Below, piece by piece: positions 1,927 to 43,148 of a stretch of DNA of 64,000 nucleotides. The position numbers and the translations under genes are program-made. Under the pieces are notes generated by a model. The model did not search any database. It saw only the letters and a list, made by a program, of their open reading frames with translations, and was not told the DNA's origin. Within the stretch, counting starts at the first letter, position 1. Every line of letters begins with the position of its first letter. Origin of the DNA: Candidatus Omnitrophota bacterium (GTDB taxonomy: Bacteria > Omnitrophota > Gorgyraeia > Gygaellales > Profunditerraquicolaceae); contig JBAZJY010000002.1 of the NCBI GenBank assembly GCA_041651115.1, forward strand, positions 158,855 to 222,854, written 5' to 3'.

Positions 1927-1962
1927 CTTGATAGTTAATATACTTAATAATCAGTGAGGTTA

Positions 1963-3997: not shown

Positions 3998-4000
3998 GCA

Positions 4001-8372: not shown

Positions 8373-8376
8373 GCTT

Positions 8377-9555
8377 ATGAAGATCGGGCTGGGCCAGCCG
8401 AGCCGCGCTTTCCCTGTTTTCATCTATTCCGCGATAATATTTTATTTTTTTATCTGCACTTTACATCTGATCTTACGCCGGCCGCCATGGCTGGACGAGA
8501 TATTCCTGATCAATAACCTCAAAGAGCTTTCTCCCGCAGGTATATTCGGGCCGCTGAAATATTCCCAGGGGTTTCCCCGTCTCTACTTATTCATTATCCA
8601 AAATTTAAGCCGGGCGTTTAATTACGGCGTAATATCGTTAAGGGCTCTGCCGTTCGTATTCATGATAACCGGTTTTGGCCTGTGGTTGGCTGCCTTTCGG
8701 AAACAGTATGGCAGGGGCGATGCGTATCTCTTGTTTATACTTTGCTGGTGCGGCTCGTGGTTTATGACTTATTACGCGGCGGAATTCAAGCAGTATTCCG
8801 CGGACGTGTTCGCGGCAGGGGCCTTTACTTATTTTATCCTGAAGCAGAAAGAATCCGTTTTATCAGGGGCTTTACGGCCGCGCCTTTTTTTACAATACTT
8901 ATTCCTGCCGGTGCTGCTTTTATTTTCTTACGCTGCCTATTTTTTTATCATCATTCCCGCGTATAATCTTTTATTGTCTTCCCTGCGCCAAAGGCGGAGT
9001 CTTTTCTATCTGGCGGCTTATCTGTTATCCATCGCGGCGTTTTCTTTCCTGTCCTATAATTATGACCTGAAATATACGCTTGCCGCGCCGGCGCTGCACG
9101 GATATTGGGAAAGCTATTTTATTTCTACGGCATCCCCGGCAGCTTTTATGGAAACTTTTTGGGAAGGCTTAAGGAATATCTTTGTGCGCTGGTTTGAGCA
9201 GGGGCCGCCGGTTACGTGGATAATGACCATATTTATGCCCTTTGCGCTGTATTATGCCTTCCGTTATGGGATAAAGCAGTTCAGGGCCGATAAATACCTG
9301 TGTGTATCGCTGGATAGTCTGACAATCGTTTTATTAGCCGGCCTGTTTTTTACCGGCCTGTTACGCGCTTTTCCTTTTACCGCGGGAAGGGTTACCTTAT
9401 TTATCGCGCCGTTTATTTTTTGCGCGATAATAAAAGGCGCAGAGATCTTTAAGGCAAAGTTTTGGGCAGGGTACGCTGTTTTGACTGCCGGGTTCGTATT
9501 TACCTTATTATCGGTGTCTATGCGGCTGGTGTCGCGCTATATGCCGTTGTATTAA
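8377..9555 (+). CDS. polytopic membrane protein, possible GT-C-fold glycosyltransferase
   Basis: 392 aa with about 10 TM helices. The first loop carries a RRPPWLDEIF motif resembling the DE motif of ArnT/PMT-type GT-C enzymes. Confidence 0.3.
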   Translation: MKIGLGQPSRAFPVFIYSAIIFYFFICTLHLILRRPPWLDEIFLINNLKELSPAGIFGPLKYSQGFPRLYLFIIQNLSRAFNYGVISLRALPFVFMITGFGLWLAAFRKQYGRGDAYLLFILCWCGSWFMTYYAAEFKQYSADVFAAGAFTYFILKQKESVLSGALRPRLFLQYLFLPVLLLFSYAAYFFIIIPAYNLLLSSLRQRRSLFYLAAYLLSIAAFSFLSYNYDLKYTLAAPALHGYWESYFISTASPAAFMETFWEGLRNIFVRWFEQGPPVTWIMTIFMPFALYYAFRYGIKQFRADKYLCVSLDSLTIVLLAGLFFTGLLRAFPFTAGRVTLFIAPFIFCAIIKGAEIFKAKFWAGYAVLTAGFVFTLLSVSMRLVSRYMPLY

Positions 9556-9562
9556 CAAATAC

Positions 9563-9590
9563 TTGCAAAAATAATTATCAGGGTTATAAT
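9563..9590 (+). promoter_or_regulatory. sigma70-like promoter (TTGCAA-16nt-TATAAT) upstream of the pilin-like gene
   Basis: TTGCAA lies at 9563-9568 and TATAAT at 9585-9590. A GGGAGGAGG RBS precedes the GTG start at 9652. Confidence 0.55.
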
Positions 9591-9651
9591 AGCATACAAG
9601 AAGCTTAATTAACTTTCCTTTAATGTTTTTTCAGTAGGGAGGAGGTGCAGA

Positions 9652-10071
9652 GTGAAAAAAGGTTTTACGCTCTTGGAATTGATCGTTGTTATTGTTATTC
9701 TCGGCATCCTGGCGACATTAGCCACTACACAATACACGAGGATGGTAGAGAAGTCACGCGGCGCAGAGGCAAGGATCATCATCGGTTCTATCCGTACAAA
9801 CCAGGCTGCGATCAGGCTGCAGAATGGATCTTGTACAAGCACAGCTGCGGACGTGGGCATCGCAGCCGGCTCAGACGCGCCATCGCCATGCACAATAACC
9901 CATTATTTTTCCTATAGCCTTGCCGGCGCATCGGGCAATTCATTTACTGCTGTGGCTACCAGGTGCACAGTTAATGGCAAGAACCCGAATGCCGCAACAG
10001 CCGGAACGATCAGCCTGGTTACTAATTTTGATACCGGTGCGGACAGCTGGACTTCGGCAAGCGCGTATTAA
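9652..10071 (+). CDS. type IV pilin / pseudopilin-like protein (prepilin N-terminal methylation domain)
   Basis: N-terminus MKKGFTLLELIVVIVILGILA is a class III signal peptide with the G/F cleavage motif and Glu at +5. The start codon is GTG with a strong RBS. Confidence 0.85.
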   Translation: MKKGFTLLELIVVIVILGILATLATTQYTRMVEKSRGAEARIIIGSIRTNQAAIRLQNGSCTSTAADVGIAAGSDAPSPCTITHYFSYSLAGASGNSFTAVATRCTVNGKNPNAATAGTISLVTNFDTGADSWTSASAY

Positions 10072-10116
10072 TTAGTATAGATAGCCAGGTTGAATTCAGT
10101 CCGAAAGGAGGCAATA

Positions 10117-10365
10117 ATGGATGAAATTGTCTTTGGTGACTTTATTAGATATACGAGTTTAGTAATCGGTATTTTTGGCGTTTTAGCCGGGGTCGACTTG
10201 GTCCTGGGGGCCAAGGTGATCATTTATCTTAAGGCTATATTGGACAAAGGGACTGATATTGTAGATAAAGCAATAGTCAGCGCGCACTCCAAAAGGATCT
10301 TTGGTTCCGTGATCCTTTTTCTTTCACTGGTCATATTGTTCTTAAGCAATAAGATCAGGATGTAA
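10117..10365 (+). CDS. small two-TM membrane protein (hypothetical)
   Basis: ATG at 10117 follows an AGGAGG RBS. The protein has two hydrophobic helices. Confidence 0.4.
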   Translation: MDEIVFGDFIRYTSLVIGIFGVLAGVDLVLGAKVIIYLKAILDKGTDIVDKAIVSAHSKRIFGSVILFLSLVILFLSNKIRM

Positions 10366-10404
10366 CCCGCGTTACCGGCTCCTCCGCAGCATCTGAAAAA
10401 CTTC

Positions 10405-10432
10405 TTGACTTAAGGAATCGGATTCGTATAAT
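10405..10432 (+). promoter_or_regulatory. sigma70-like promoter (TTGACT-16nt-TATAAT) of the biosynthetic operon
   Basis: TTGACT lies at 10405-10410 and TATAAT at 10427-10432. It is the only sizeable intergenic gap before 11 kb of co-directional overlapping genes. Confidence 0.6.
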
Positions 10433-10436
10433 AAAT

Positions 10437-10454
10437 ATAGTAAAATTTTACTAT
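10437..10454 (+). promoter_or_regulatory. 18-bp perfect palindrome ATAGTAAAATTTTACTAT (candidate operator) immediately downstream of the -10
   Basis: The sequence equals its own reverse complement. It overlaps the predicted transcription start of the operon beginning at 10471. Confidence 0.5.
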
Positions 10455-10470
10455 ACACGAGGCATAACCT

Positions 10471-10734
10471 ATGAATTGGGAACCGGGTACAGAGGCAAGG
10501 TTCAAGGCAGTCATCTCTAAACTTCCGATCTTTCACCGCCGGATCGCCGAGAACGCTGTGGCCGTAAAGGCCGAAGAAAACGCCGGCGCAAGGAAAAGCC
10601 CGCAGGTTGAAGAGCAGGATGTGGTTGCCGCGTTCTTTTCAGACGTGCCTTCCCCGTTTTACAGTATGATGGTCCGCCTCCTGGAGCAGTCCGGTTTTGA
10701 TTATAAAAAATACGGTTACCCTAAGAACAAATGA
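10471..10734 (+). CDS. PCP-reductase-family small protein (protochlorophyllide reductase 57 kDa subunit C-terminal domain-like)
   Basis: 87 aa. The W..EA.ARFK....P.F.RR.AE..V...AE pattern matches standalone PF08369-type proteins. Confidence 0.45.
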   Translation: MNWEPGTEARFKAVISKLPIFHRRIAENAVAVKAEENAGARKSPQVEEQDVVAAFFSDVPSPFYSMMVRLLEQSGFDYKKYGYPKNK

Positions 10735-11735
10735 TGATTGCGGTGATTGGCAGCGGCGCCATAGGCGGCCTTGTTGCCGGGTATCTTAAAGAAAAAGGCC
10801 GGGACGTCCTATTGGTGGGTAACCCGGCTGCGGTAGAAGCGGTCAAGGTTAACGGCCTATCCATAAGCGGGGTAAGGGGCAATATTAAGGTAAAGATAGA
10901 TATTGCCAACCGTTTAGACCGGCAATACGGTCTGGTAGTGCTTGCGGTTAAGACGCAGGACGTTGAAAAAGCTGTAAAAGATAACCTCGCTTTTTTAAAG
11001 GACTCCGTAATCCTGACCGCGCAGAACGGTATTCAGGCGGATAATATTGTCAGCCGCTTTGTTGCCGAGGAAAAGATCGTTTCCAGTATTGTGATGTTCG
11101 GCTCAACCTGTATTGAGCCGGCAAAAATAGTGCATAATTTTGAAGGCGGCTGGATCATTGGCAAGGCCTTTGGCGCTGATGACAGCGTCGTAGATAAGGC
11201 GGCAGCGGCGCTTGGTGAAATATTCCCCGTAACCGTTGCTGCGGATATCCGGGGAATGAAATACCTGAAAGTATTTGTGAATGCCAATAACTGCATTCCG
11301 GCGATCCTGGGCATAAGCATGCAGGAAGCGTTTGCCGATATCCAAGTCAGCCGCATCAGCATTGCTATCTGGCGCGAAGGGTTTGATATTATCAGAAGGG
11401 CGGGGATAAAAATGGCTTCTTTGCCGGATTTTCCTCTGGAACGGCTGACCAGGCTTTTATCTTTACCCGCGCCTGAAGCGGCAAAGATTTTCTCCGGGAT
11501 CATGGCCAGCCTCAGTAAAGAGCCTTTATACGGGTCGATATTACAGAGCATAAAACGGGGAAAGTCTTCGGAAATAGATTATATCAACGGCGAATTCGTA
11601 AACATTAGCCGGCAGAATAACAGCCACGCTCCTTTAAATGAAAAATTAACGGAGATGGTGCATCGGGTGGAAAAAACCGGCAAATTCCTTTCTAAGCAGG
11701 AATTGCTTGAGGAAACGAAGGATTTAGTCGATTAA
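10731..11735 (+). CDS. 2-dehydropantoate 2-reductase family NAD(P)-dependent oxidoreductase (ApbA/PanE-like)
   Basis: N-terminal Rossmann IAVIGSGAIGGLVAGYL, 334 aa, KPR-family layout. Confidence 0.6.
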   Translation: MMIAVIGSGAIGGLVAGYLKEKGRDVLLVGNPAAVEAVKVNGLSISGVRGNIKVKIDIANRLDRQYGLVVLAVKTQDVEKAVKDNLAFLKDSVILTAQNGIQADNIVSRFVAEEKIVSSIVMFGSTCIEPAKIVHNFEGGWIIGKAFGADDSVVDKAAAALGEIFPVTVAADIRGMKYLKVFVNANNCIPAILGISMQEAFADIQVSRISIAIWREGFDIIRRAGIKMASLPDFPLERLTRLLSLPAPEAAKIFSGIMASLSKEPLYGSILQSIKRGKSSEIDYINGEFVNISRQNNSHAPLNEKLTEMVHRVEKTGKFLSKQELLEETKDLVD

Positions 11736-11736
11736 T

Positions 11737-12366
11737 ATGCAAGGCAAAAACGAAAATTATGACGCGGGCTCTGTAAATAGCCCGTTCCCAAAGCTAAAGC
11801 TTACCGTAACCAATGTTTTTGGGGAATGTTACCACGGGTATAAAGTAGGCGACGAGCTGGTTCTCGGCGATTTTACCCATCCGCCGAAACATTTTTGCCT
11901 GGGGCTGGCGCATGCCTTATTCCCGGTGATCTACGCGTTAAGTTTCGGGGCAAAGTTCGGCTTCCGCGATAACCAGCGTTCACTTTTAGTTACCTGCCCG
12001 GACGGCGGCAAGCTTGAATTCAAGGCTGAAGTTTTAGATAAGGACGGCAAGGTTGAATTCCTGCCTAAGGACCCCGGCCATAAAGGGCCGAACCCTAAAA
12101 AAATGATCATCGAGGCAGTCAAAGCAAAAGGTAAATGCGCATTTGGTTATAAAGTAGGAGATAAGTGGGAAACTACCGGGCTTAAATGCATTCCCGGGTT
12201 TTGCGGGGCTGCGTTTCATACCGCATTCCCCGCGTTATTTGCGCTTAATTTCGGGGCAAAGTTCTTTTTTATGCCCGATCCAAATTCCGTAGATACAGTT
12301 ACCTGCCCGGACGGCGGGAATATCGTGTTCAAAGTAAAAAGAGTGGAAGAAGAAGAGAAGGAATAG
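11737..12366 (+). CDS. tandem-duplicated TIGR04076-like Cys-containing protein
   Basis: Two internal repeats each carry C.HGYKVGD...G..C.G......FP...AL.FGAKF.F.......V.CPDGGN..FK. Each repeat resembles the ~90-aa TIGR04076 family. Confidence 0.5.
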   Translation: MQGKNENYDAGSVNSPFPKLKLTVTNVFGECYHGYKVGDELVLGDFTHPPKHFCLGLAHALFPVIYALSFGAKFGFRDNQRSLLVTCPDGGKLEFKAEVLDKDGKVEFLPKDPGHKGPNPKKMIIEAVKAKGKCAFGYKVGDKWETTGLKCIPGFCGAAFHTAFPALFALNFGAKFFFMPDPNSVDTVTCPDGGNIVFKVKRVEEEEKE

Positions 12367-12367
12367 T

Positions 12368-13630
12368 ATGAAAAAGAGAAGAGTGGTGATCACCGGTATC
12401 GGCACGGTTTCGCCTAATGGGATTGGTAAGGAGAATGCATGGAAGGCAATGTCTTCGGGAAAATCCGGGGTAAAGCTCGTGGATGGTTTTGACGTGTCAA
12501 TGTTCAACACGCAGATCGCTGCCGAGGTCAGGGATTTTGACCCGTTCAAATTAGGCCTGACGCATGAAGAAGCCGTGCGTATGGACAGGTATGTGCAATT
12601 TGGCGTAGTTGCCGGAGATATGGCAATAAAGGATTCCAGCCTTGATTTTTCCAAGGAAGACCCTGAGCGCGTAGGCGTTTGCCTTGCTAACGCCATCTGC
12701 GGCACGAAGTATATGGAAGAAGAGTTCGTTATGGTTACCGATAACGGTAAAAATCCCATTGACCCTTCGCGGGTGAGGCAGGACCTTTATGACGCGGCAA
12801 TGTTTAATACTCCTTCGATCGAACTGTCCGCGCGTTATAAATTAAAAGGCATCTGCAATACTTTATCCACCGGCTGTACTGCCGGCACGGATTCTTTAGG
12901 TTTTGCCCTGGAAACCATCCAGGATGGCGAACAGGATATCATGGTCGCGGGCGCAGCAGAGGCCCCGATCACCCCGATCACTTTCGGCGCGTTTGACGTG
13001 GTGAACGTCCTTTCCAGCCGCAATGCCGAGCCGGAAAAAGCGTCACGCCCGTTTGACAATAAGCGGGACGGCTTTGTGCTTTCGGAAGGCGCTGGTATTT
13101 TAATATTAGAAGAGCTTCAGCACGCGTTAAAACGTAACGCCCGCATATATTGCGAAGTGCTCGGCTTTGGCACGAGCTGCAATGCTTTCCATATGACTGA
13201 TCTGCCGGGTGATGGATCGGCAATGGCAAATTGCATAAGCATGGCGCTTAAGGACGCGGAAATGAAACCTCAGGAGATCGATTATATCAACGCGCACGGC
13301 TCATCTACGCGCATGAACGATATTTTTGAGACTTCTGCATATAAGATGATCTTTGGCGATTACGCCTATAAGCTGCCGATGAGCTCCTTTAAGTCAATGA
13401 TCGGCCATCCTTTGGCAGCGTCTAACGCAATTGAGCTGACGGTTTGCTCGATGATCTTCGAGAAAAATATCCTTCCTCCTACGATAAACCAGGAAGAAAA
13501 AGACCCCCTCTGCGACCTGGATTACATCCCGAATGTTGCCCGGGCAAAGAAGGTGAATACGATATTAAAGACAAGCAGCGGGTTTTCCGGAATTCATTCT
13601 TCGCTGATTATTAAACGTCTGGAGATATAA
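12368..13630 (+). CDS. beta-ketoacyl synthase, type II PKS KS-alpha-like
   Basis: 420 aa. Active-site LSTGCTAGTDSLG matches the KS-alpha signature, and His-His motifs are present (HMTD, NAHGSST). Confidence 0.8.
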   Translation: MKKRRVVITGIGTVSPNGIGKENAWKAMSSGKSGVKLVDGFDVSMFNTQIAAEVRDFDPFKLGLTHEEAVRMDRYVQFGVVAGDMAIKDSSLDFSKEDPERVGVCLANAICGTKYMEEEFVMVTDNGKNPIDPSRVRQDLYDAAMFNTPSIELSARYKLKGICNTLSTGCTAGTDSLGFALETIQDGEQDIMVAGAAEAPITPITFGAFDVVNVLSSRNAEPEKASRPFDNKRDGFVLSEGAGILILEELQHALKRNARIYCEVLGFGTSCNAFHMTDLPGDGSAMANCISMALKDAEMKPQEIDYINAHGSSTRMNDIFETSAYKMIFGDYAYKLPMSSFKSMIGHPLAASNAIELTVCSMIFEKNILPPTINQEEKDPLCDLDYIPNVARAKKVNTILKTSSGFSGIHSSLIIKRLEI

Positions 13631-14869
13631 ATGGCAAAGACAGCAATTACAGGGATCGGTATTGTCGCGCCCTCGGGTATAGGTAAGCGCCAGTTCTGGG
13701 CAAACGTTAAATCCGGACGTTCGTCCATAAAAGAGATCACCCGTTTTGACGCTTCAAAATATCCCGCGCATATTGCCGGCCAGATCGACGACTTAGAAAA
13801 ATATAGCCATGTTTCCGAGCGGCTTTTAAAAAAGATCGACGCATTTTCGCATATGGCCTTGATCGCATCCGAACTTGCGCTGCAGGATGCGGGTATTGAT
13901 ATCAAAAATGAAGACCCGAACCTCGTAGGTATATTTTTAGGCAATGCCATCGGCGGATGGCTCTATGCCGAAACCGAGCTGCGCGACCTGTATATTGAAG
14001 GCCGCGAGGGTGTGTCGCCTTATATGGCGTCGGCGTGGTTTCCCGCGGCGCCGCAAGGCCAGGTCTCCATTTATTACGGGATAAAAGGTTTCAGTAAAAC
14101 TGTAGTTGCCGACCGCGCCAGTTCTGCGATGGCCATCGGCTATGCCAATAAAACTTTAAGTAAGGATAAATTGAATATGATCCTTGCCGGCGGCATGGAA
14201 GCGCCGGTAACGCCTTACGCGCTGTTATGCTGCAATACTTACGGCGGGCTTTCTGTCGATAACGCGCATCCCGCGGCTGCTTACCGGCCGTTTGACAGGA
14301 AACGCAGCGGCTTTGTCATCGGCGAAGGCGCGGGGATCATGGTTATGGAGCCTATAGAGCGCGCAAAGGCGCGGAAGGCAAATATTTTAGCCTATACCTG
14401 CGGCTATGGTTACAGTTGTGACGCTATTGATCGGATTAATCCCGATGCTTCAGGTGTGCAATTGGCACGCGCGATAAAAATGGCGCTGAGTGACGCAAAA
14501 GTAAAAGCAGAAGAGATCGATTATATAAGCTTAGATGGACTGGCGGTAAAATCATGGGATGCAGGAGAGGTAGCGGCAATAAAGGAAGTTTTCGGGCCAA
14601 AGGCCAAAGGCATACCTGTAAGTTGCCCAAAATCAATGTTCGGTAATTTACTGGGCGCTTCCGGCGCAGTTGACCTGATCACCGCGGTTATGGCAATGGA
14701 AAACAGCCTGGTGCCTCCGACAATCAACCTTGACGACCCGGACTTGAACGGGCTAAACTATGTTACCGGGGAATCGCGCGAGTATAAAATAAATAAAGCC
14801 CTGATCATTTCCCGCGGCAGGGGCGGGATCAATTCAGCGTTGGTAATAGAAAAAGGAGGGTCAAAGTGA
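13631..14869 (+). CDS. ketosynthase-like chain-length-factor (KS-beta/CLF-like), catalytically inactive partner
   Basis: 412 aa KS fold. The active-site Cys is replaced (VADRASSAM aligns to STGCTAGTD), and the second His motif is lost (YISLDG instead of NAHG). Confidence 0.7.
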   Translation: MAKTAITGIGIVAPSGIGKRQFWANVKSGRSSIKEITRFDASKYPAHIAGQIDDLEKYSHVSERLLKKIDAFSHMALIASELALQDAGIDIKNEDPNLVGIFLGNAIGGWLYAETELRDLYIEGREGVSPYMASAWFPAAPQGQVSIYYGIKGFSKTVVADRASSAMAIGYANKTLSKDKLNMILAGGMEAPVTPYALLCCNTYGGLSVDNAHPAAAYRPFDRKRSGFVIGEGAGIMVMEPIERAKARKANILAYTCGYGYSCDAIDRINPDASGVQLARAIKMALSDAKVKAEEIDYISLDGLAVKSWDAGEVAAIKEVFGPKAKGIPVSCPKSMFGNLLGASGAVDLITAVMAMENSLVPPTINLDDPDLNGLNYVTGESREYKINKALIISRGRGGINSALVIEKGGSK

Positions 14870-16326
14870 AAATATTATTCGTAATGCCAAAAGTAGGGGC
14901 GTGGGCAACGCACGGCATTCATCGTTCGCCAAATCAACTTTATGCGCATTGGGCGGCATATGTGCGCGAAAGAGGCTATGAGGATGTGGCGGTTATAGAC
15001 GGCAAAGCCGATCAGATACCCATGGATCAACTGATTGAGCAGGTAAAAGAGAAGAATCCCGATGTCGTGGTCATGGGTGAACAGCTGCATGGTTATGGCG
15101 GATACGGAGTTTTGCGGCATTTTCACGATGCAGCCGTCGGCATTAAAAAAGCGCTTCCCAAAACAAAAATAGTTTTTGGCGGGTTATGGTATTCTGCCAT
15201 GCCTGTGCATACATTAGAAGGTATCCCTGAGGTAGACTTTGTAGTCATGGGCGAAGAAGAATCTTTCGGCGATCTGATCGAGGCAATCGATAAAAAGAAA
15301 GATTTTAAAGACGTGGGCGGAGTTACTTCGCGCATCGGCAGCGAGATTGTCATGGGGCCGCACAAGCCGCTCATGGAAGACCTGGATAAACTGCCGCTTC
15401 CGGCATATGACCTGTTCCCGATGGGTAAATACGTCGGGCACACCTATTGGAAGCCGTTCGTAGATATGGTTACTTCCCGCGGCTGCCCTTCTGCGTGTAC
15501 TTTTTGTTATGAGTGGGACCAGTTTGACCCGCGCAGCCCTTCGGATTTCCTGAAATGGCGCGCTAAATCACCGGAGCGGGTGATCGAAGAGATGGAGCTT
15601 TTACAGAATAAATACGGGGTCAAGGTAGTGGTGATCCAGGACGATAATTTTAACGTTGATCCTGCGCGCGTGAAAAGATTCTGCGAACTAAAGAAGCAGA
15701 AAAAGATAGATATTAAATGGGTTTCCCTGGGCCGCGCCATTGACTGGGTCAATTGCGAAAGCGTGCTTCCCCTGATGAAGGAGACCGGCTTGTTCATGGG
15801 CGTATTCGGCATTGAAGTTACTACGCAATCAGAGCTTAAAAAGATCGCCAAGGGCATAACTTTAGATCAGATCAAAAAAACCATCGAGATCCTGCGCAAG
15901 AACGACATCGCGATTGTCGCGGACATTATGATGGGTTTTGATTACGATACAGAAGAGATCATCAAACAGCGGTTTGAATTCACCGATCAGGTTGACCCGG
16001 ATATCCTTTGGGTCGGCTATGTCACGCCTGCGCCGAATTCCCCGATGTGGAAGATCGCCTTGAAGAAAAACTGGATTGACCCCAAAAAAGTTGATTTCAG
16101 CACCTGGGATTTCCTGCACCCGGTCATCCCTACCGATCATTTAAGTACTGAAGACCTGGGCAGGCTGGGTTCCTGGTGTATGCGTGAATTTTTCTCAAAG
16201 CCGGGCAGGATCAACCGGATCATGGAAAGCAATTTTGATATGCTTGCCAAGCTCTGTTTCAAGGATGTTATGGACGGGATTAACAAATGGGAAGCCGGAG
16301 CGACAAAAGGCGAGGTGCATATTTAA
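14866..16326 (+). CDS. B12-binding domain radical SAM protein (class B)
   Basis: N-terminal cobalamin-binding Rossmann-like domain. CPSACTFC cluster (CxxxCxxC) at residues ~200. 486 aa. Confidence 0.8.
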   Translation: MKILFVMPKVGAWATHGIHRSPNQLYAHWAAYVRERGYEDVAVIDGKADQIPMDQLIEQVKEKNPDVVVMGEQLHGYGGYGVLRHFHDAAVGIKKALPKTKIVFGGLWYSAMPVHTLEGIPEVDFVVMGEEESFGDLIEAIDKKKDFKDVGGVTSRIGSEIVMGPHKPLMEDLDKLPLPAYDLFPMGKYVGHTYWKPFVDMVTSRGCPSACTFCYEWDQFDPRSPSDFLKWRAKSPERVIEEMELLQNKYGVKVVVIQDDNFNVDPARVKRFCELKKQKKIDIKWVSLGRAIDWVNCESVLPLMKETGLFMGVFGIEVTTQSELKKIAKGITLDQIKKTIEILRKNDIAIVADIMMGFDYDTEEIIKQRFEFTDQVDPDILWVGYVTPAPNSPMWKIALKKNWIDPKKVDFSTWDFLHPVIPTDHLSTEDLGRLGSWCMREFFSKPGRINRIMESNFDMLAKLCFKDVMDGINKWEAGATKGEVHI

Positions 16327-16337
16327 CGGAGGCGGAT

Positions 16338-16577
16338 ATGGAAGTAAAAGAAAAGATTAAAGATGTGTTCGTGGATCTTTTAAAGGTCAAGCGCGCAGAA
16401 TTAAAAGACGATATCAACCTGCAGAGTTCGATCGGCGTGGATTCCACGGAAATGGTAGAGAGCGTGATCGCCCTGGAAAAGGCCTTCGGCGTGAAATTAA
16501 GCCCGAAAGAGATCACCAAATTTTCCACGCTTAACGACATTGAAAAGAATATCCAGTCCAAGCTGGCAGGTAAATAA
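16338..16577 (+). CDS. acyl carrier protein
   Basis: 79 aa from ATG at 16338, which follows a GGAGG RBS. It has the phosphopantetheine-attachment motif GVDSTEMVE. Confidence 0.75.
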   Translation: MEVKEKIKDVFVDLLKVKRAELKDDINLQSSIGVDSTEMVESVIALEKAFGVKLSPKEITKFSTLNDIEKNIQSKLAGK

Positions 16578-16578
16578 A

Positions 16579-17379
16579 ATGACGATAATCGACTTAAGCC
16601 TACCCATTGACGAACGCGCCCCGGAAGTGCACCCCTTCGGCATTGAACGGCTTGGCCATAAAGAAGGCGTGCGCCATTTAAACTGGGTGATGATGAAGAA
16701 AACCCTTTTGGGCCGGGTATCTTTTTTCCTGGGCAAGCGGCTGATCAAACCGCAGGAGCTTCCCGACGAGGAATTCCTTTCTTTGGAGACCGTGCATTGC
16801 CCGGTGCATATCGGCACGCATATTGACTATACATACCATTACGGCACGAAATGCGAAGGCCGCGCATCTAAGAGCATCAGCGAACTGCCCTTAAAATGGT
16901 GTTTTTCCGACGGCGTTGTCTTGAATTTCACTTTCCGCCAGCCCGGAGAGGTGATCTCGCGGCTGGACGTGGAAGAGGCGCTTAAGAAAATAAATTACAG
17001 CGTAAAGCCCAACGACATCGTGCTTTTCCATACGGCAGCGGACCGGTTTTTCGGCACGCTTGATTACCTGAATAATTACCCGGGAGTTTCTCCGGATGCC
17101 ATAGAATTCCTGCTGAATATGGGGGTGAAGATCATCGGTATAGACACCCTTGGGTTTGACCGGCCGTATAAATTCATGATGCGCGATTTTATGCGCACGA
17201 AAAACCCGGCATTCCTCTGGCCGGCGCATTTTTTCGGCAGGAAGCGGGAATACGCGCATATTGAGCGTCTTACTAATTTGGACAAGCTGCCGCCGTTTGG
17301 TTTCAAGATACAGTGTTTCCCGATCAAGATCCTTGATTGCGGCGCTGCCTGGGCAAGAGTAGTAGCAATATTAGATTAG
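16579..17379 (+). CDS. putative cyclase family protein (PF04199, kynurenine formamidase-like)
   Basis: The HCPVHIGTHIDYTYH metal-binding motif is typical of this family. Start is taken at ATG 16579, just after the ACP stop. Confidence 0.65.
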   Translation: MTIIDLSLPIDERAPEVHPFGIERLGHKEGVRHLNWVMMKKTLLGRVSFFLGKRLIKPQELPDEEFLSLETVHCPVHIGTHIDYTYHYGTKCEGRASKSISELPLKWCFSDGVVLNFTFRQPGEVISRLDVEEALKKINYSVKPNDIVLFHTAADRFFGTLDYLNNYPGVSPDAIEFLLNMGVKIIGIDTLGFDRPYKFMMRDFMRTKNPAFLWPAHFFGRKREYAHIERLTNLDKLPPFGFKIQCFPIKILDCGAAWARVVAILD

Positions 17380-17391
17380 AGAGGTGGAAAT

Positions 17392-17838
17392 ATGGGCCAT
17401 ACGTGTAATTCCATTATCATCAACGCGCCTTACGATTTGATTTTTGATATTTCCAACGACATCCCGCGCTGGACAGAATTGTTCGGCACAGAGTACCAGA
17501 AAGCCGAGATTGTAAAAAAAGAAGGCAATAAGATCACCTTCCGGCTTACCGATGACGAAGGAAAATCATGGCAGTCATGGCGGCTCTTGTTCAAGGACAA
17601 TTACCTTGCGTATGCGGAAAGAGAAGAGCCGAAATTCCCCTTTAAATATATGAAGATCATTTGGCTCTATACACCTAAGCCCGGGGGAATTGAGTTGACC
17701 TGGATTCAGCATTTTGAAATGGATGAAAAGGCCAAATTCAACGACGAGCAGGTGGAAGGCTTTATCAATAAGCACTCCAAGGACAATCTTAAGATATTTA
17801 AAGAAGTTATTGAAAAAGAAGCCAAGACAAATAAGTGA
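17392..17838 (+). CDS. SRPBCC / polyketide cyclase-dehydrase (Polyketide_cyc2-like) protein
   Basis: 148 aa, START/Bet v1-like composition resembling TcmN-type ARO/CYC domains. Confidence 0.5.
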   Translation: MGHTCNSIIINAPYDLIFDISNDIPRWTELFGTEYQKAEIVKKEGNKITFRLTDDEGKSWQSWRLLFKDNYLAYAEREEPKFPFKYMKIIWLYTPKPGGIELTWIQHFEMDEKAKFNDEQVEGFINKHSKDNLKIFKEVIEKEAKTNK

Positions 17839-18959
17839 AAAGGTCCTTATTCATTATCTTCTGTCTTGAAGGCGCGATCCTCTCTTTTAACGTCGCTGCC
17901 TGTTCAGCTTTGATCCCCTCAATCTCCCAGGAATTTTCTGTTTCACAATTTATCGCCGGCAGGGCAGTGTGGCTGTATATGCTGCCTTACGGGATCGCCG
18001 CGCTTTTATACGGTCCGCTGGTGCGGCGCTTTGACGCGCGCAGGATAGAATTAACCTGTTTTTTATTTTTTTCTTTGGCAAACCTGTTTGCCGCGCTTTC
18101 CCCGGACATCAACAGGTTTTTCACCGCCAGGCTTTTAATGGGCATATTCGGCGCTTCGGTGATCCCGCTGGTGTTGATACTGATCGCCCGCCACGGCGCG
18201 GCAAAGACAAGGGGCAGGCAGATAGGCGTATTTTTCAGCGCTACTTTTGTTGCCTCGCTTGCCGGTTTATTCTTAAGCGGGCTGATTAATTGGCGGATGA
18301 TCTTTCTTATTCCCGGCCTGGCAGGCATTGCGCTTTGGGTATACATGTATTTTAACCTGCCAAGTTTCCAGAAAGACTGCGGCGGTTTTAAAATAAATTA
18401 CCTGGCTGCTTTTAAAAGCAGGGCAGTGGTTTCCATATTTACCTATATATTCCTTATCAGCCTGCTTTATCACGGCGTTCAGCAGTGGCTGGGAGTATTT
18501 TTCTCCGTGAAATTCGGTTTAAGCCAGTTTTTAGTCAGCATGCTGGTAACGCTTACCAGCCTAAGCGGCATATTCGGCGAGGTGATCGGCGGCTGGCTTG
18601 CGGATACGCTCGGCAGGATAAGGACCATTGATTTGGGCATAATGATCATGATAGTGTCTTTAATATTACTGCTTTTTAAAATACCGCTTGTGATGATTGC
18701 CGTAGCGATGATTGCCTGGGGCCTGGGCTGGACATTTAATCATGCGGGTTTGTCTACGCTGCTTACCGACCTGCCGTCTGAATTCCTTAACGAGGCAGCG
18801 AGTTTGAACAGCAGCGTGCGTTTTGTTTCCGGCGGTGTAGGCGCGGCAGCAGGCGGCATGATCATGCAAAAAAGTTTTTCAACCGGTTTCATCATCGCGG
18901 CCGTAGCTTTAACCGCACTGGCCGTTTCAGCGAAAAAACTATTAAACCAAGGGGGATAA
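17835..18959 (+). CDS. MFS transporter
   Basis: 374 aa, ~12 TM helices with MFS loop motifs. Confidence 0.7.
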   Translation: MKRSLFIIFCLEGAILSFNVAACSALIPSISQEFSVSQFIAGRAVWLYMLPYGIAALLYGPLVRRFDARRIELTCFLFFSLANLFAALSPDINRFFTARLLMGIFGASVIPLVLILIARHGAAKTRGRQIGVFFSATFVASLAGLFLSGLINWRMIFLIPGLAGIALWVYMYFNLPSFQKDCGGFKINYLAAFKSRAVVSIFTYIFLISLLYHGVQQWLGVFFSVKFGLSQFLVSMLVTLTSLSGIFGEVIGGWLADTLGRIRTIDLGIMIMIVSLILLLFKIPLVMIAVAMIAWGLGWTFNHAGLSTLLTDLPSEFLNEAASLNSSVRFVSGGVGAAAGGMIMQKSFSTGFIIAAVALTALAVSAKKLLNQGG

Positions 18960-18960
18960 C

Positions 18961-19734
18961 ATGTCAGAACTAAAAGGAAAGACAGCGATCGTTACCGGCG
19001 CAAGCCGGGGCATTGGTAAGGCGCTTGCCTGTACAGCAGCAAGCCTGGGGATCAATTTAGCAATTGCCGCCCGGCAGGAAGGCCCGTTAAAAGAGACGGC
19101 GGATGAAATCGCCAAAAAATATAACGTTCAGGTCTTGCCGGTAGCCTGCGATGTTACCAAGCTTGAAGACCTTGAGAATCTGGTGAATAAGGCAAAGGAA
19201 AAATTCGGGAAAATAGATATCCTGATCAATAACGCCGGCGTTTCCAGCCAATACCCGTTCCATGAACAGCCGATAGAAGACTTTGAGAAACTGGCGCATA
19301 CCAATTACCTGGGCTATGTGCGCTTGATTCGCCTGGTGATCAATGATATGATTAAAAATAAATCCGGGGCGATCATTAACATGGTTTCCGGGTCAACGCT
19401 TTGTGACCCTTTACCGAGGAATTTTATCGTCTATAGTTCTTTAAAAGTCGGCTTGCGCGCATTTTCCAAGGCTTTATTTTGGGAGTTGCGCGACTACGGC
19501 ATAAAAGTGACTTCTCTTTTACCCGGGGTCACCGATACGGACCTGACCGGAAAGCTTAAAGAGATTACCAATGAAAATTCCCGGTTAATGTCTACCGAGG
19601 CAATTGAAAATGCAGTGAAATTCGCGCTTACTGTCCCGGCAAATGTCTGTCCATTGGAAATTGCCGTGATCAACCAGCAGACGCCGTGGACTGCGCCGGT
19701 TATACCATACAAGCAGGCACACCCGGGAAAATAA
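18961..19734 (+). CDS. SDR family oxidoreductase (ketoreductase)
   Basis: TGASRGIGKA Rossmann motif, NNAG, and the YSSLK catalytic Tyr-Lys pair. Confidence 0.85.
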   Translation: MSELKGKTAIVTGASRGIGKALACTAASLGINLAIAARQEGPLKETADEIAKKYNVQVLPVACDVTKLEDLENLVNKAKEKFGKIDILINNAGVSSQYPFHEQPIEDFEKLAHTNYLGYVRLIRLVINDMIKNKSGAIINMVSGSTLCDPLPRNFIVYSSLKVGLRAFSKALFWELRDYGIKVTSLLPGVTDTDLTGKLKEITNENSRLMSTEAIENAVKFALTVPANVCPLEIAVINQQTPWTAPVIPYKQAHPGK

Positions 19735-19775
19735 CTTCGTCTGGTGCATCATCTTTGTTGAAAAAGGAGGAGAAT

Positions 19776-20381
19776 GTGAAGAAAATATTATTAGCAGCGA
19801 TGTTTTTACTGATTTCGGCTTCTCTGTCTTTCGCGCAAGGGGATAATCTTCTCATTGATGATTTTGAAGGTGCGATTTCCGGCGGGCCTGAAGGCACGGT
19901 TGATTTTGGGGCGGGCAACGGCTCCGCGGTCCAGGTTTTGGCAGCTACGGATATTAAACATTCCGGCAGCCATTCGCTTAAAGTTGATTATGATGCCCTG
20001 GCCGGAGGGTATATTTATGTGGCAAAGGGCAGCGGCCTTGATGCAAAAAATGCCGGATGGCTGGTTAAGCCGGAAGACATTGACTGGAAGGCTTACAAGG
20101 CAATAATTTTTTATATGTACGGCAGTGATTCCAAGGTTGATGTGGCATTTGACATCAAGGACAGCGGCGGGGAGCTGTGGCGTTTTATTGTCAAAGATGA
20201 TTTTACCGGTTGGAAACCGATCCTTTGCCCGTTTGCGGAGTTTTTTGCCCGCAGCGATTGGCAGCCGGAAAGCGCGGATAAAAACGGGAATATAGATTTC
20301 CCTCTTAAGCACTACCAATTTGAGCCGTTGCCCGAAGCAAAGGGCGTGCTTTATTTTGACGAAGTTGAGCTGGTAAAATAG
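19776..20381 (+). CDS. secreted beta-sandwich protein (CIA30/CBM-like), hypothetical
   Basis: GTG start after AAGGAGG. Signal peptide KKILLAAMFLLISASLSFAQG, then a DDFEG...W.......G galactose-binding-like pattern. Confidence 0.4.
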   Translation: MKKILLAAMFLLISASLSFAQGDNLLIDDFEGAISGGPEGTVDFGAGNGSAVQVLAATDIKHSGSHSLKVDYDALAGGYIYVAKGSGLDAKNAGWLVKPEDIDWKAYKAIIFYMYGSDSKVDVAFDIKDSGGELWRFIVKDDFTGWKPILCPFAEFFARSDWQPESADKNGNIDFPLKHYQFEPLPEAKGVLYFDEVELVK

Positions 20382-20405
20382 GATAACCTTAATGGAGGGC
20401 AGGAA

Positions 20406-20822
20406 ATGACTAAGCAGGATATCAAGAATTTGAAGAAACGCTACCTTGTCTGGCTGTATATGACCACCAAAGAGGCATTTGACCGCTACGAAAGAAAATT
20501 CACCCAGCTGGACATTGATACATTCATGCTTTTTGAGATGGAGAAAGAGCTTAAAGGCGCATACCTGCCCGGAGACAAAAAGACGTTGGAAAAATACATT
20601 AATGATTTTCGCGAATATATTGCCGAGAAAGAAAAAGTCTGCCTGAAGTTAAAGTATAAAGATAAAAGGATCGACCCGGAATTCCTTTTTCTTGATATAA
20701 AACTGGATGCGCTTGAAAAAGCGATCGTCAAAGAATTAGGCACAAAGGCCCTGGATGAGATAAAGGCGTTTTACGAATCTGAAATGACCGAGAAGATCTC
20801 GCGGGGGACAAAGCATAAATGA
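20406..20822 (+). CDS. hypothetical protein
   Basis: 138 aa charged helical ORF, co-directional and overlapping the next gene. No recognisable motif. Confidence 0.35.
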   Translation: MTKQDIKNLKKRYLVWLYMTTKEAFDRYERKFTQLDIDTFMLFEMEKELKGAYLPGDKKTLEKYINDFREYIAEKEKVCLKLKYKDKRIDPEFLFLDIKLDALEKAIVKELGTKALDEIKAFYESEMTEKISRGTKHK

Positions 20823-21730
20823 TCATTGACGCGCACAGCCACTGGCTTCCCGAAGAAATAATCAGCAATGCCCATTTTTATTCCAAGGCATGGGGCCAGA
20901 TCAGCTCGCAGATAGAGATCATGGCAGCTGCGGGCATTGATAAGGCGGTCTTAAGCTATCCGACTTCCGACGCGCACTTAAAATTAGGCGGGTCACTTGA
21001 GGTGGCGCAGATCTATAACGACAACGTGGCGGATATCATCAAGCAGGCGCCGGATCAATTCATCGGGGCAGCAATCCTGCCCGTGGAAGATAAAATGAAA
21101 ATGCTCGCGGAATTCAGGCGGGCAACCGAAGATCTCGGGTTTAAGGCATTGTCACTGGCATCAAGCTATGACGGCGCATATCTTGACGATAAGCGCTTTT
21201 TCCCGCTTTATGAAAAAGCAGCGCAAAAGAACCTGCCGGTCTTCGTGCATTCCCAGATCGTTAATCCTATCGGCTTTGAGCGCGTGCAGGATCCGCTGCT
21301 GACGCCGGTGATTGAGTATGTCTTTGATACGACGATCTGCATCGGCAAATTATTAATGAGCGGGGTGCTTGCGGAATTTAACAGCGTAAAATTCATTTTT
21401 GCGCATTTTGGCGGGGTAATCCCGCATCTTGCTTACCGTTTTGACGCGACTTACCAGATGCTGCGTTCAATAAATTTCGTCAAAGACTTAAAAGGCAATC
21501 CTACGCAATTCTTAAAGAATATTTATGTGGATACCAGCGGAGACGTGCGCCAGGCTAATTTCCTTGCCGCGCTTGAGCTGGTGGGCCCGGACCATATTTT
21601 GTGGGGCAGCGATTGGCCGGCAAAAAAAGACCCGGCTGCTTCGATCAAAGCAGTACAGGACTTAGACATATCCGCTGCCGATAAAACAGCAATCCTCGGC
21701 AACAATTTAGCAAAGCTGTTCGCTCTTTAA
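20819..21730 (+). CDS. amidohydrolase-2 family protein (PF04909, decarboxylase/hydrolase type)
   Basis: N-terminal IIDAHSHWLPEEI and C-terminal ILWGSDWP metal-ligand motifs of the ACMSD-type amidohydrolase family. Confidence 0.75.
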   Translation: MIIDAHSHWLPEEIISNAHFYSKAWGQISSQIEIMAAAGIDKAVLSYPTSDAHLKLGGSLEVAQIYNDNVADIIKQAPDQFIGAAILPVEDKMKMLAEFRRATEDLGFKALSLASSYDGAYLDDKRFFPLYEKAAQKNLPVFVHSQIVNPIGFERVQDPLLTPVIEYVFDTTICIGKLLMSGVLAEFNSVKFIFAHFGGVIPHLAYRFDATYQMLRSINFVKDLKGNPTQFLKNIYVDTSGDVRQANFLAALELVGPDHILWGSDWPAKKDPAASIKAVQDLDISAADKTAILGNNLAKLFAL

Positions 21731-22190
21731 TATACGCACGGTTAATTCATGCCTTTTTATTCTCGGCGCTGCAAACATTTTGCCGTCGGCTACGGTTTAC
21801 TCGTCGCTCTCAGGCATACTTTCGTAACATTAGGGCTTCCGCTCCTCGTAAAGCCTTGCCGACTGGCCTGTAAACGAATTGGCAAAAATTTGCAATGCGC
21901 CTGCGAACAAAAAGCATGAATTTATTAATGTGTATCCATAAGCATCCAAGATAAGTATAAATCATAGCAGCGGCTGGCTTGGCTTTGCTTTGAGCAGCAC
22001 GTAGGAGGCTTGAGCGGGCACGGTTGCCCTCATATACGTTAGGGCAGAGCGAAAGCCGACTCACGAGCGAAGATTTTCCTCGCAGGGGAAAATCAAGCGG
22101 TGCTGCGAAAAGCAAGACAAGGCAGACGCTACAAGATTGATTAGATAAGGAAATATAAGTTTGTTAAACTAACCAACAAGGAGTATAACG

Positions 22191-22940
22191 ATGCAAATGG
22201 TTAAGGATGTGCATTTGACGGGTAAGGATTTGACGCAGATGGTGCAGCTCAGACCGCAGGACGTGGGCAAATACGCGATCGTGCCCGGGCCAAAGGACCG
22301 GCTGGAAGTTTTATTAAAAAAGATGGAGAATCCGGTAAAGAATTTCTCATTCATGGAATACACCATGTACACCGGTATGTATCAAGGCATCAAGCTCACC
22401 GGTATAAACGGCGGCAGGTTCTCCACCGACACTTCCATCACTTCGGAAGTAATGTGCAATGCCGGTATACAGAATATCATCCGTATCGGCACCTGCGGTT
22501 CTTTGGATGAAAATATTAAAGTCGGGGACATTGTTGTGGTAGATAAAGTGATCCGCGGCGACGGAGTAACCCCGTATTATGTGGATAAGGATTTTCAGAC
22601 CGTAGCCGACAAAAAGATCACCGATACTTTATTTGAAGTTGCTAAAGGTATGGGTGTCAACGTGCATCGCGGATGCGCCTGGACAACCGACGCGCTGCTG
22701 CGCGAAACAAGGGAGATCGTAGAGGCAAAGCGCAAAGAAGGTGCGATTGCCGTGGATATGGTTTCCTCAACGCTCCTGACCATTGCCCAAACATATAATG
22801 TCAAAGCCGGATCGATCCTGGCGGTAAGCGACAACGTGATCACCGGCGAGATGGGTTTTATGAACCCGCTTTATTATATGGCAGAATCAAGCTTGATCAG
22901 CATTGCTTTGGAAACCGTAAAGAAGCTGGAAGGAAAATAA
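22191..22940 (+). CDS. PNP/UDP phosphorylase family nucleoside phosphorylase (MTA/5'-deoxyadenosine phosphorylase candidate)
   Basis: 249 aa. GTCGSL phosphate-binding segment and PNP_UDP_1 fold pattern. AAGGAG RBS. Confidence 0.65.
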   Translation: MQMVKDVHLTGKDLTQMVQLRPQDVGKYAIVPGPKDRLEVLLKKMENPVKNFSFMEYTMYTGMYQGIKLTGINGGRFSTDTSITSEVMCNAGIQNIIRIGTCGSLDENIKVGDIVVVDKVIRGDGVTPYYVDKDFQTVADKKITDTLFEVAKGMGVNVHRGCAWTTDALLRETREIVEAKRKEGAIAVDMVSSTLLTIAQTYNVKAGSILAVSDNVITGEMGFMNPLYYMAESSLISIALETVKKLEGK

Positions 22941-24879: not shown

Positions 24880-24880
24880 A

Positions 24881-36104: not shown

Positions 36105-36105
36105 T

Positions 36106-37512: not shown

Positions 37513-37522
37513 GAGACAAGAT

Positions 37523-39947: not shown

Positions 39948-39948
39948 A

Positions 39949-43138: not shown

Positions 43139-43148
43139 TACTTAAGCT

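Follow-up and report, generated by a model that had tools for sequence, protein, structure and literature searches.

Does an operon in an uncultivated phylum, outside the actinomycetes in which type II polyketide synthases (PKSs) have been studied almost entirely, encode a genuine aromatic polyketide pathway, and does it stand alone in its genome? The question is raised by a 64,000-nucleotide stretch of a Candidatus Omnitrophota genome (assembly GCA_041651115.1, contig JBAZJY010000002.1, positions 158,855 to 222,854; hereafter the window), in which an initial annotation, made from the letters alone, had described a type II PKS-like operon. We analysed its genes, g1 to g13 (window positions 10471-21730), together with their neighbours and their relatives in other genomes. 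The explanation that we consider likely for the whole locus is a deep-branching ('ancestral', non-actinobacterial) type II PKS pathway, which would make an aromatic polyketide under anoxic conditions and would be coupled to a salvage module encoded next to it.

The first point concerns the two ketosynthases (KSs), KS1 and KS2, encoded by g4 and g5. We constructed a neighbour-joining tree of 23 sequences (300 bootstraps), the reference pairs being taken from annotated plasmid records and from E. coli K-12. KS1 was placed within the KS-alpha clade (bootstrap 99), where it grouped with Bacillus and Priestia KSs (bootstrap 95), and KS2 was placed within the clade of chain-length factors (CLFs; bootstrap 100). 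The KS-alpha and CLF sequences together were split from five FabFs, FabB and NodE (bootstrap 95), and neither KS was found in the FabF/FabB clades. Among PDB entries, KS1 scored highest against the act KS-alpha (382 bits) and AntD (6smo_B; 374 bits), followed by the FabFs (349 bits or less); the anammox pair 9s5h_B/C (285 and 216 bits) and the ishigamide KS (226 bits) scored lower. Against annotated plasmids, KS1 was 43–49% identical to type II PKS KS-alpha proteins and 38–41% identical to FabF, and its best matches included Streptomyces KS-alpha encoded beside TcmI cyclases. KS2 scored 283 bits against proteins named 'ketosynthase chain-length factor' and 253 bits against FabF. The FabF equivalog TIGR03150 was rejected for both (KS1 462.1 and KS2 375.8 bits, cutoff 493.75).

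The active-site residues gave the same division of roles. The Cys/His/His triad is intact in KS1, and KS2 has Arg, Asp and Asn at the equivalent positions (R162, D302 and N339), which are invariant in 73 sequences comprising the window and its orthologues. The canonical actinobacterial CLF is recognized by a Gln at the Cys position; g5 has Arg there. This Arg is common to the Bacillus, Priestia and Azospirillum CLFs, and Gln was observed in three Streptomyces CLFs. Therefore, an Arg-type CLF sets the locus apart from the actinobacterial subgroup and not from type II PKSs as a whole. The acyl carrier protein (ACP) from g7 carries its phosphopantetheine Ser in GVDSTE. Dehydratase and enoyl reductase genes were looked for among the operon genes with Pfam and NCBIfam, and none were found.

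The cyclase genes g8 and g9 are consistent with this assignment. The g9 protein matched the TcmN aromatase/cyclase (ARO/CYC) over its full length (E 2e-26) and the WhiE ARO/CYC (E 4e-22). An Arg of g9 aligns with TcmN R69, the residue substituted by Ala in PDB 2res, and equivalents of the TcmN pocket positions (W28, Y35, S67, W95, W108, Q110 and N136) are kept. The g8 protein, with its HxGTHxDxxxH metal motif, belongs to PF04199, the family of OxyN. It is 42% identical (E 6e-86) to a 'cyclase family protein' of a type II PKS cluster on a Priestia megaterium plasmid, and 50% identical to the cyclase of a Bacillus bombysepticus cluster; its matches to kynurenine formamidase and isatin hydrolase were weak. 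Directly 3′ of the Priestia cyclase gene lies an SRPBCC gene whose product is 41% identical to g9. As judged from these identities, the g8/g9 pair is orthologous to the adjoining cyclase–SRPBCC pair of Priestia, and the two genes are not members of unrelated housekeeping families. The initial proposal of a type II PKS is thus supported by the KS-alpha/CLF/ACP set and by the TcmN-type and PF04199 cyclases.

The last gene of the operon, g13, encodes an amidohydrolase-2 (AH2; 113.7 bits, cutoff 26.4) whose sequence shows the HxH and Asp metal ligands. Its top nine distinct matches in the PDB are decarboxylases, the best solved relatives being LigW (5-carboxyvanillate decarboxylase, 3e-25), gamma-resorcylate decarboxylase and ACMSD. 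Since its closest solved relatives are decarboxylases, g13 is probably an aryl-acid decarboxylase.

Between the CLF and ACP genes lies g6, which encodes a radical S-adenosylmethionine (SAM) enzyme (rSAM). It has B12-binding (7.7e-11) and Radical_SAM (1.3e-21) domains, and its CxxxCxxC motif reads CPSACTFC; by these features it belongs to the class B (cobalamin-dependent) radical SAM enzymes. It scored under every curated family cutoff. BchE (TIGR02026) was the best-scoring named family and is a superfamily neighbour only (206 bits, cutoff 481), HpnJ scored 157 bits (cutoff 578), and the ladderane-type lipid B12-rSAM model TIGR04072 scored 74.7 bits (cutoff 360). No relative in the PDB was better than AprD4 (59 bits), and homologues in the annotated plasmid set were at most 27% identical. 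Among 1.8 billion cluster representatives searched, the nearest sister clades were 47, 44 and 38–39% identical, none of them named, and no named NCBIfam family was found for g6 or for these clades. This is consistent with the earlier remark that no type II PKS cluster so far characterised has companions like the B12-rSAM, TIGR04076 and g1 proteins. The sole precedent that our literature search returned for a radical SAM enzyme acting on an aromatic polyketide is the HemN-like methylase in coelulatin.

The ORF listing and the gene calls of the 487-kb source contig, an ENA metagenome record, give 14 co-directional genes on the + strand (Table 1). Neighbouring genes either share 4 nt or have 0–41 nt between them; the junctions from g1 to g13 are, in order, −4, +1, +1, 0, −4, +11, +1, +12, −4, +1, +41, +24 and −4 nt. 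The initial annotation was right about this tight co-directional packing and one gene short in its count of 13, having overlooked the 138-aa protein g12b. The single strong promoter that it had proposed is a near-consensus sigma-70 site scoring 11/12, the top match in the 16 kb scanned (9500-25500), and 50 of the 56 related loci have a match of at least 11/12 at the 5′ side of g1. The motifs quoted for KS1 (LSTGCTAGTDSLG) and for the ACP (GVDSTEMVE) are both present, and KS2 is without the Cys as had been stated. Searches of Pfam and NCBIfam bore out the family assignments for the ApbA/PanE protein, the tandem TIGR04076 protein, the two KSs, the B12-rSAM, the ACP, the PF04199 cyclase, the Polyketide_cyc2 SRPBCC protein, the MFS_1 transporter, the short-chain dehydrogenase/reductase (SDR), the secreted beta-sandwich protein and the Amidohydro_2 protein. 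The GC content is flat across the window and shows no compositional break. The gene order is far beyond chance, since the whole order recurs in 80 species-level loci.

Next, we considered the distribution of the locus. Among GTDB species representatives, 287 stretches were found to encode a relative of the rSAM, and the best 80 of the 287 were inspected. All 80 are from Omnitrophota metagenome-assembled genomes (MAGs), some of them under the default title 'uncultured Planctomycetales', and the whole operon is syntenic in them. More than 120 database clusters matched the rSAM at 72–92% identity, the named ones being nearly all Candidatus Omnitrophota MAGs; as nearly all named homologues carry this label, the non-actinomycete setting described at first is confirmed. 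The median identities to the window were 90% for the rSAM, 87% for the SDR (62 loci), 85% for TIGR04076, 83% for SRPBCC, 82% for the KS, 78% for the CLF, 69% for AH2 and for g1, and 59% for the ketopantoate-reductase-like (KPR-like) protein and the cyclase. Divergent copies (rSAM 77–78% identical) were found on contigs labelled by NCBI as Thermodesulfobacteriota and Pseudomonadota (L082 and L084).

The sister rSAM of 47% identity represents another large Omnitrophota family, which lies in a locus of the same kind with its genes rearranged (L098 and L099). The order there is PadR, acyl-CoA ligase, phosphorylase, isomerase, aldolase, aldehyde dehydrogenase (ALDH), rSAM, g1-like, KPR, KS, CLF, ACP, cyclase, SRPBCC, MFS, methyltransferase, SDR and AH2, and g3, g12 and g12b are missing. 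The added methyltransferase is a class I SAM enzyme (L098 19010-19744). We also observed that L099 is interrupted by small toxin–antitoxin-like genes (HicB-like, nucleotidyltransferase/HEPN and DUF2204) between the biosynthetic genes, at 4107-4405, 7033-7649, 15239-15866 and 18019-18222.

A recent preprint gives 'more than 700 species' for the phylum Omnitrophota in the same GTDB release. The 287 matches, compared with this number, make the cluster a common trait of the phylum, the proportion being rough because 80 of the 287 were inspected. The locus had at first been treated as a stand-alone biosynthetic gene cluster (BGC). This did not hold, as it is conserved, lineage-wide and linked to genes for the salvage of SAM by-products. 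We concluded that this is a conserved trait found lineage-wide in Omnitrophota, under a strong promoter, and not a sporadic antibiotic island. A 2023 catalogue of type II PKSs counts Candidatus Omnitrophica among 14 phyla with KS–CLF pairs and gives no further analysis of them; the word 'Omnitrophica' does not occur in its supplements. Our literature search on polyketides or type II PKSs of Omnitrophota/Velamenicoccus returned no description of this cluster.

The linkage to salvage genes is as follows. In the window, the operon is followed by a module of five genes for a nucleoside phosphorylase, an MtnA-like isomerase, a class II aldolase, an ALDH and an acyl-CoA ligase (Table 1), after which comes RlmN. 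The phosphorylase, isomerase and aldolase genes lie 3′ of the operon in nearly every one of the 80 inspected loci that extends far enough, and in L082 and L084 these genes abut AH2 with gaps of 1–2 nt. In the second lineage (L098/L099), all five genes are located immediately 5′ of the rSAM; the ALDH is kept beside the aldolase in both loci, and the acyl-CoA ligase is represented by 55% identical copies beside PadR. The isomerase passes TIGR00524 (207.7 bits, cutoff 185.9). The aldolase scored 97–116 bits with aldolase models and 47–61 bits with MtnB dehydratase models, all of them below the curated cutoffs. It has a C-terminal SCP2 (sterol-carrier/lipid-binding) tail, and its homologues in L082, L084, L098 and L099 are similar in length (334–342 aa).

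5′-Deoxyadenosine is formed stoichiometrically as radical SAM enzymes turn over, and it inhibits this turnover. From its gene content, the module looks like a dihydroxyacetone phosphate (DHAP) shunt-type route for the removal of 5′-deoxyadenosine and/or 5′-methylthioadenosine (MTA), which would give DHAP and an aldehyde. The DHAP shunt and 5-deoxyribose salvage were reportedly described by North et al. 2020 and Beaudoin et al. 2018. The acyl-CoA ligase could serve this salvage or could activate a starter unit.

That the two sets of genes adjoin could also reflect inherited synteny or a housekeeping placement, and not a coupling of the module to the B12-rSAM. In the window, 460 bp precede the phosphorylase gene as a spacer, the length of which varies between loci (1 to 5 kb); a further six radical SAM genes are found within 20 kb; and any anaerobe rich in such enzymes needs a pathway of this kind. 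However, the linkage has outlived a rearrangement, the module being 3′ in loci of the window type and 5′ in L098/L099 at 42–64% identity, which argues for functional coupling. Other flanking genes are not conserved, and the gaps to AH2 in L082/L084 leave hardly any spacer. We consider inherited synteny rather doubtful as an explanation of the adjacency.

A different reading keeps the enzymology of an aromatic type II PKS and changes its purpose. The product would then belong to core physiology and would not be a secreted antibiotic; it could be a pigment, a polyketide-derived quinone or electron carrier with redox activity, or a phenolic lipid of the membrane or outer membrane. Such a product would account for the phylum-wide vertical conservation. 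Synteny extends over at least 80 species among 287 matches and a second deep lineage has the cluster too; the core enzymes have median identities of 82–90%, compared with 71% for the pump of the resistance-nodulation-division (RND) type and 69% for MtnA; and the near-consensus promoter is conserved. The gene for the dedicated exporter of the major facilitator superfamily (MFS), g10, is variable and dispensable, being present in 44 of the 80 loci. A lipid function would also fit the position of the operon beside an MMPL lipid-type transporter (L082) and DUF1302/DUF1329 outer-membrane proteins (L082 and L084), and the lipid-binding SCP2 domain on the aldolase. On the other hand, the locus contains no prenyltransferase, acyltransferase or respiratory genes, and MarR/PadR regulators together with tripartite efflux typically go with secreted aromatics that are toxic. 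Conservation alone does not fix function, and the 80 inspected loci may all come from a few related orders. Taken together, we regard a core-physiology product as unlikely.

A pathway of the fatty acid synthase (FAS)-like 'ladderane-type', in which a KS heterodimer and the B12-rSAM would modify an acyl chain, is very improbable: 'ladderane' clusters called by antiSMASH have previously been reported in Omnitrophota MAGs, the anammox FabF homologues are a KS/CLF-like heterodimer encoded beside radical SAM genes, KS1 passes a broad FabF subfamily model and g6 matches TIGR04072 weakly, but that match is far below its cutoff, KS1 scores lower against 9s5h_B/C than against the act KS-alpha and both KSs lie in the KS-alpha/CLF clades, and the operon encodes an OxyN-type cyclase and a TcmN-type aromatase/cyclase whose catalytic residues are intact, with neither dehydratase nor enoyl reductase.

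Under the type II PKS explanation that we prefer, the pathway could run as follows. Genes elsewhere would provide a phosphopantetheinyl transferase to activate the ACP (g7) and an acyltransferase to load malonate onto it, and the g4/g5 heterodimer would build an ACP-bound poly-beta-ketone by iterative malonyl condensation. Closure and aromatization of the first ring are attributed to g9, and g8 may close a later ring. The terminal aryl carboxylate would be stripped by g13, and reductions would be carried out by the g11 SDR and the KPR-like enzyme of g2. Oxygen-independent tailoring, with release of 5′-deoxyadenosine, is the predicted role of g6; C-methylation would be its most likely form, and a BchE-like oxidation or ring formation the alternative. 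Export of the product may use the MFS and RND transporters, with MarR and PadR as regulators. The phosphorylase, isomerase, aldolase and ALDH would clear 5′-deoxyadenosine and/or MTA, the inhibitory by-products of SAM.

Several points weigh against this pathway. Every step of it is inferred from homology, and methylation by g6 is a guess because the enzyme has no characterised close relative. The KS tree was a neighbour-joining tree of 23 sequences that included no anammox, aryl-polyene or ishigamide references, and KS1 scores above the cutoff of the broad FabF 'subfamily' model PRK07314 (452 bits, cutoff 387). The g11 SDR is no closer to polyketide ketoreductases (KRs) than to FabG (~30% identity each), and roles are not assignable to g1, g3 and g12b. 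In the module, the phosphorylase is of the Udp/DeoD type and is not recognised as an MTA phosphorylase; neither this enzyme nor the aldolase reaches any curated cutoff. Furthermore, RlmN and five more radical SAM enzymes are encoded in the window, so the module need not serve g6 specifically.

Some labels of the companion genes had to be revised. The g1 protein had been called PCP-reductase-like; it had no Pfam match to PCP_red (PF08369) up to E 10 and no PDB match, and this label was dropped. It gave a sub-threshold match to DUF2621 (E 2.9e-4, 21.3 bits, cutoff 27.7). The gene adjoins the KPR-like gene in both lineages, the median identity of 69% being from 57 loci and the L098/L099 copies being 52–56% identical. 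The g2 protein, also found in both lineages, matched ApbA (7.6e-29), ApbA_C (3e-16) and TIGR00745 (151.9 bits, cutoff 141). The g3 protein matched TIGR04076 over two stretches (94.9 bits, cutoff 33), each repeat having three conserved Cys and a His, which are invariant. To our knowledge, no function has been assigned to this family, and the label therefore does not carry one. A structure model of g3 was poor (pLDDT 65) and gave no clear fold match. The g11 protein had been named an SDR ketoreductase. It is indeed an SDR; a preference for polyketide KRs was not seen, as it is 28–32% identical to KRs of three Streptomyces clusters and 32% identical to E. coli FabG. It is equidistant from the two groups, and a ketoreductase function is no more than plausible. 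The CBM_11 gene g12 is variable (37 of 80 loci) and is missing from L082, L084 and L098. The g12b protein is conserved in 54 loci (median identity 57%; 48% in L082); Pfam and NCBIfam gave no family match for it.

Table 1. Features of the window in order of position, with the evidence for each.
Feature	Coordinates	Strand	Evidence or remark
AccA	415-1362	+	heads the same co-directional gene string
PadR-family regulator	1359-1874	+	45–47% identical copies directly 5′ of the ligase/salvage genes in L098/L099
MarR and tripartite efflux (OEP, membrane-fusion protein, RND pump)	1954-8079	+	gene calls, family search
P-II protein; 392-aa protein of no family; type IV pilin-like protein; 82-aa membrane protein	8076-10365	+	N_methyl motif in the pilin-like protein
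Sigma-70-like promoter, TTGACT-16-TATAAT	10405-10432	+	39 nt 5′ of g1
g1, 87-aa protein	10471-10734	+	sub-threshold DUF2621 match only
g2, ApbA/PanE-family (KPR-like) NAD(P)H oxidoreductase	10731-11735	+	Pfam, NCBIfam
g3, tandem TIGR04076 protein	11737-12366	+	NCBIfam
g4 (KS1), KS-alpha, Cys-His-His triad	12368-13630	+	Pfam, PDB ranking, tree
g5 (KS2), CLF (KS-beta), Arg/Asp/Asn for Cys/His/His	13631-14869	+	ranking, tree
g6, B12-binding radical SAM enzyme, CPSACTFC cluster motif, unnamed clade	14866-16326	+	Pfam, NCBIfam
g7, ACP (GVDSTE)	16338-16577	+	PP-binding 1.3e-10; start per contig gene call
g8, PF04199 'OxyN-type' metal-dependent cyclase, HIGTHIDYTYH motif	16579-17379	+	Pfam Cyclase 1.9e-29
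g9, monodomain TcmN/WhiE-type aromatase/cyclase (SRPBCC, Polyketide_cyc2)	17392-17838	+	Pfam, PDB matches
g10, MFS transporter (MFS_1)	17835-18959	+	Pfam
g11, classical SDR oxidoreductase (adh_short)	18961-19734	+	Pfam
g12, secreted CBM_11-like beta-sandwich protein	19776-20381	+	CBM_11 4.6e-23, signal peptide MKKILLAAMFLLISASLSFA
g12b, 138-aa protein	20406-20822	+	no family match
g13 (AH2), amidohydrolase-2, nearest non-oxidative aryl-acid decarboxylases	20819-21730	+	Amidohydro_2 1.8e-32
Dispersed hairpin element, ~170 nt	21955-22140	+	in the 460-bp AH2–phosphorylase spacer
PNP_UDP_1 nucleoside phosphorylase, Udp/DeoD type	22191-22940	+	Pfam
MtnA-like (methylthioribose- or 5-deoxyribose-1-phosphate) isomerase	22940-23881	+	IF-2B 6.5e-59
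Class II aldolase with C-terminal SCP2 domain	23878-24879	+	Pfam
NAD(P)-dependent ALDH	24881-26353	+	family search
AMP-forming acyl-CoA ligase, nearest fatty-acid–CoA ligases	26369-27883	+	family search
ABC-2 permease/ATPase	31581-33736		5′ of the five radical SAM genes
Five consecutive radical SAM genes	33708-41202	+	798-aa rSAM, 499-aa B12-binding rSAM, three SPASM-domain rSAMs (402, 415 and 417 aa)
Glycosyltransferase/PMT_2 genes	41333-50562		3′ of the five radical SAM genes

Upstream of the operon, PadR is possibly a regulator of the locus and the RND tripartite efflux system a possible export route. The RND and P-II genes were found 5′ of the cluster in 15 related loci; the genes for the 392-aa and pilin-like proteins do not recur 5′ of related loci. 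AccA lies just 5′ of the PadR, MarR and efflux genes. It is the alpha subunit of the acetyl-CoA carboxylase carboxyltransferase, which supplies malonyl-CoA. In L082, MarR and a transporter with an MMPL/sterol-sensing domain lie directly 5′ of g1 (L082 2735-5836), and DUF1329 and DUF1302 outer-membrane proteins are encoded 3′ of the locus both there (19031-21461) and in L084 (8972-11333), of which the upstream flank ends at the contig end. The L082 and L084 flanks give hints of the delivery of a hydrophobic product to the envelope.

The run of five radical SAM genes further downstream, flanked by the ABC-2 and glycosyltransferase/PMT_2 genes, may be a separate modification or maturation locus. 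The element in the AH2–phosphorylase spacer forms a long hairpin (minimum free energy −75.4 kcal/mol, z = −5.8). Copies that are 72–74% identical occur on the opposite strand in L032 (11475-11610 and 12786-12939), L007 (9116-9273) and L010 (16354-16498), at varied intergenic sites of related Omnitrophota loci and also inside the PKS operon. The outer stem shows apparent compensatory changes, and the element has no Rfam match. It resembles a small mobile or REP/MITE-like repeat rather than a regulatory RNA. An Rfam scan of the operon and the 460-bp spacer gave nothing at the gathering threshold; a sub-threshold match to cyano-S1 (E 0.12) is irrelevant.

A type II PKS outside the actinomycetes is in itself no longer surprising. 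What the locus adds is a deep-branching system with an Arg-type CLF that is kept across a large share of an uncultivated phylum, and this wide conservation points to a physiological role and not to an occasional antibiotic. A second addition is the B12-radical SAM companion, a candidate for the oxygen-independent tailoring of an aromatic polyketide. A third is the conserved physical link of a natural-product operon to the salvage of SAM by-products, which offers an idea of how pathways that rely heavily on radical SAM enzymes may be sustained. The compact gene set of ~11 kb is suited to heterologous expression. A bolder proposal, which we put forward as a speculation and consider quite unlikely, is that the Omnitrophota (ultra-small, probably host-dependent anaerobes) keep an ancient type II PKS vertically as core biology, in which the radical SAM enzyme replaces O2-dependent tailoring and which is wired to its own 5′-deoxyadenosine recycling by the five-gene module, possibly returning C2 units or a starter acid to the synthase. 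If this were true, the phylum would have its own signature metabolite, for instance an envelope phenolic, a redox carrier or a compound used to attack hosts, and the chemistry would be a living 'pre-oxygen' form of aromatic polyketide synthesis.

How does the locus compare with known systems? The salvage module resembles the DHAP shunt and 5-deoxyribose salvage (MtnP/MtnA/Ald2 in Rhodospirillum; DrdK/DrdI/DrdA in Bacillus thuringiensis) in having a nucleoside-cleaving enzyme, an MtnA-family isomerase and a class II aldolase in that order, and an ALDH after the aldolase fits the acetaldehyde or methylthioacetaldehyde expected from the shunt. It differs in the Udp/DeoD-type phosphorylase in place of an MTA phosphorylase (MTAP), in the fusion of the aldolase to SCP2 and in its place beside a PKS operon. 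The anammox ladderane heterodimer FabF2/FabFmut (bioRxiv 10.64898/2026.05.19.726425; PDB 9s5h) likewise pairs a KS with a partner that is catalytically dead, the genes being neighbours of radical SAM genes, and its host too is an anaerobe, of the PVC superphylum. That system is FAS-like and much lower in sequence score (285 and 216 bits for KS1), whereas the Omnitrophota locus has PKS-clade KSs and aromatic cyclases.

The Streptomyces tcm and whiE systems are matched by g9, which aligns with TcmN and WhiE over its full length and keeps the active-site residues, and the top PDB match of KS1 is the act KS-alpha (1TQY). In contrast to the Streptomyces systems, the CLF has Arg in place of Gln, genes for TcmI, TcmJ and oxygenases are absent, and the KS identity is 42–46%. 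The nearest annotated relatives are uncharacterised type II PKS clusters on plasmids of Bacillus bombysepticus (NZ_CP085408) and Priestia megaterium (NZ_CP026738), which are alike in the KS (49%), the second KS (43%), the Arg-type CLF, the cyclase (42–50%) and the SRPBCC protein (41%). These clusters differ in having their own class I SAM methyltransferases, cupins and an FAD oxidoreductase, that is, oxygen-era tailoring, and they are without the B12-rSAM, KPR, TIGR04076, AH2 and salvage genes.

The 'ancestral' non-actinomycete type II PKSs compared are den (dendrubins, Dendrosporobacter), ant (AQ-256, Photorhabdus), clr (clostrubin) and pcy (pyxidicyclines). The Omnitrophota cluster shares with them the discrete KS-alpha, CLF and ACP and the cyclases of the TcmN and OxyN (PF04199) families; several of their hosts are anaerobes, and KS1 scores 374 bits against AntD. 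It differs from them in having a single monodomain TcmN protein and not TcmN–TcmN, in the B12-rSAM gene between those for the CLF and the ACP, and in the addition of the KPR-like, TIGR04076, g1 and amidohydrolase-2 genes and of the salvage linkage. Whereas these systems are patchy in their distribution, the Omnitrophota cluster is conserved across a candidate phylum.

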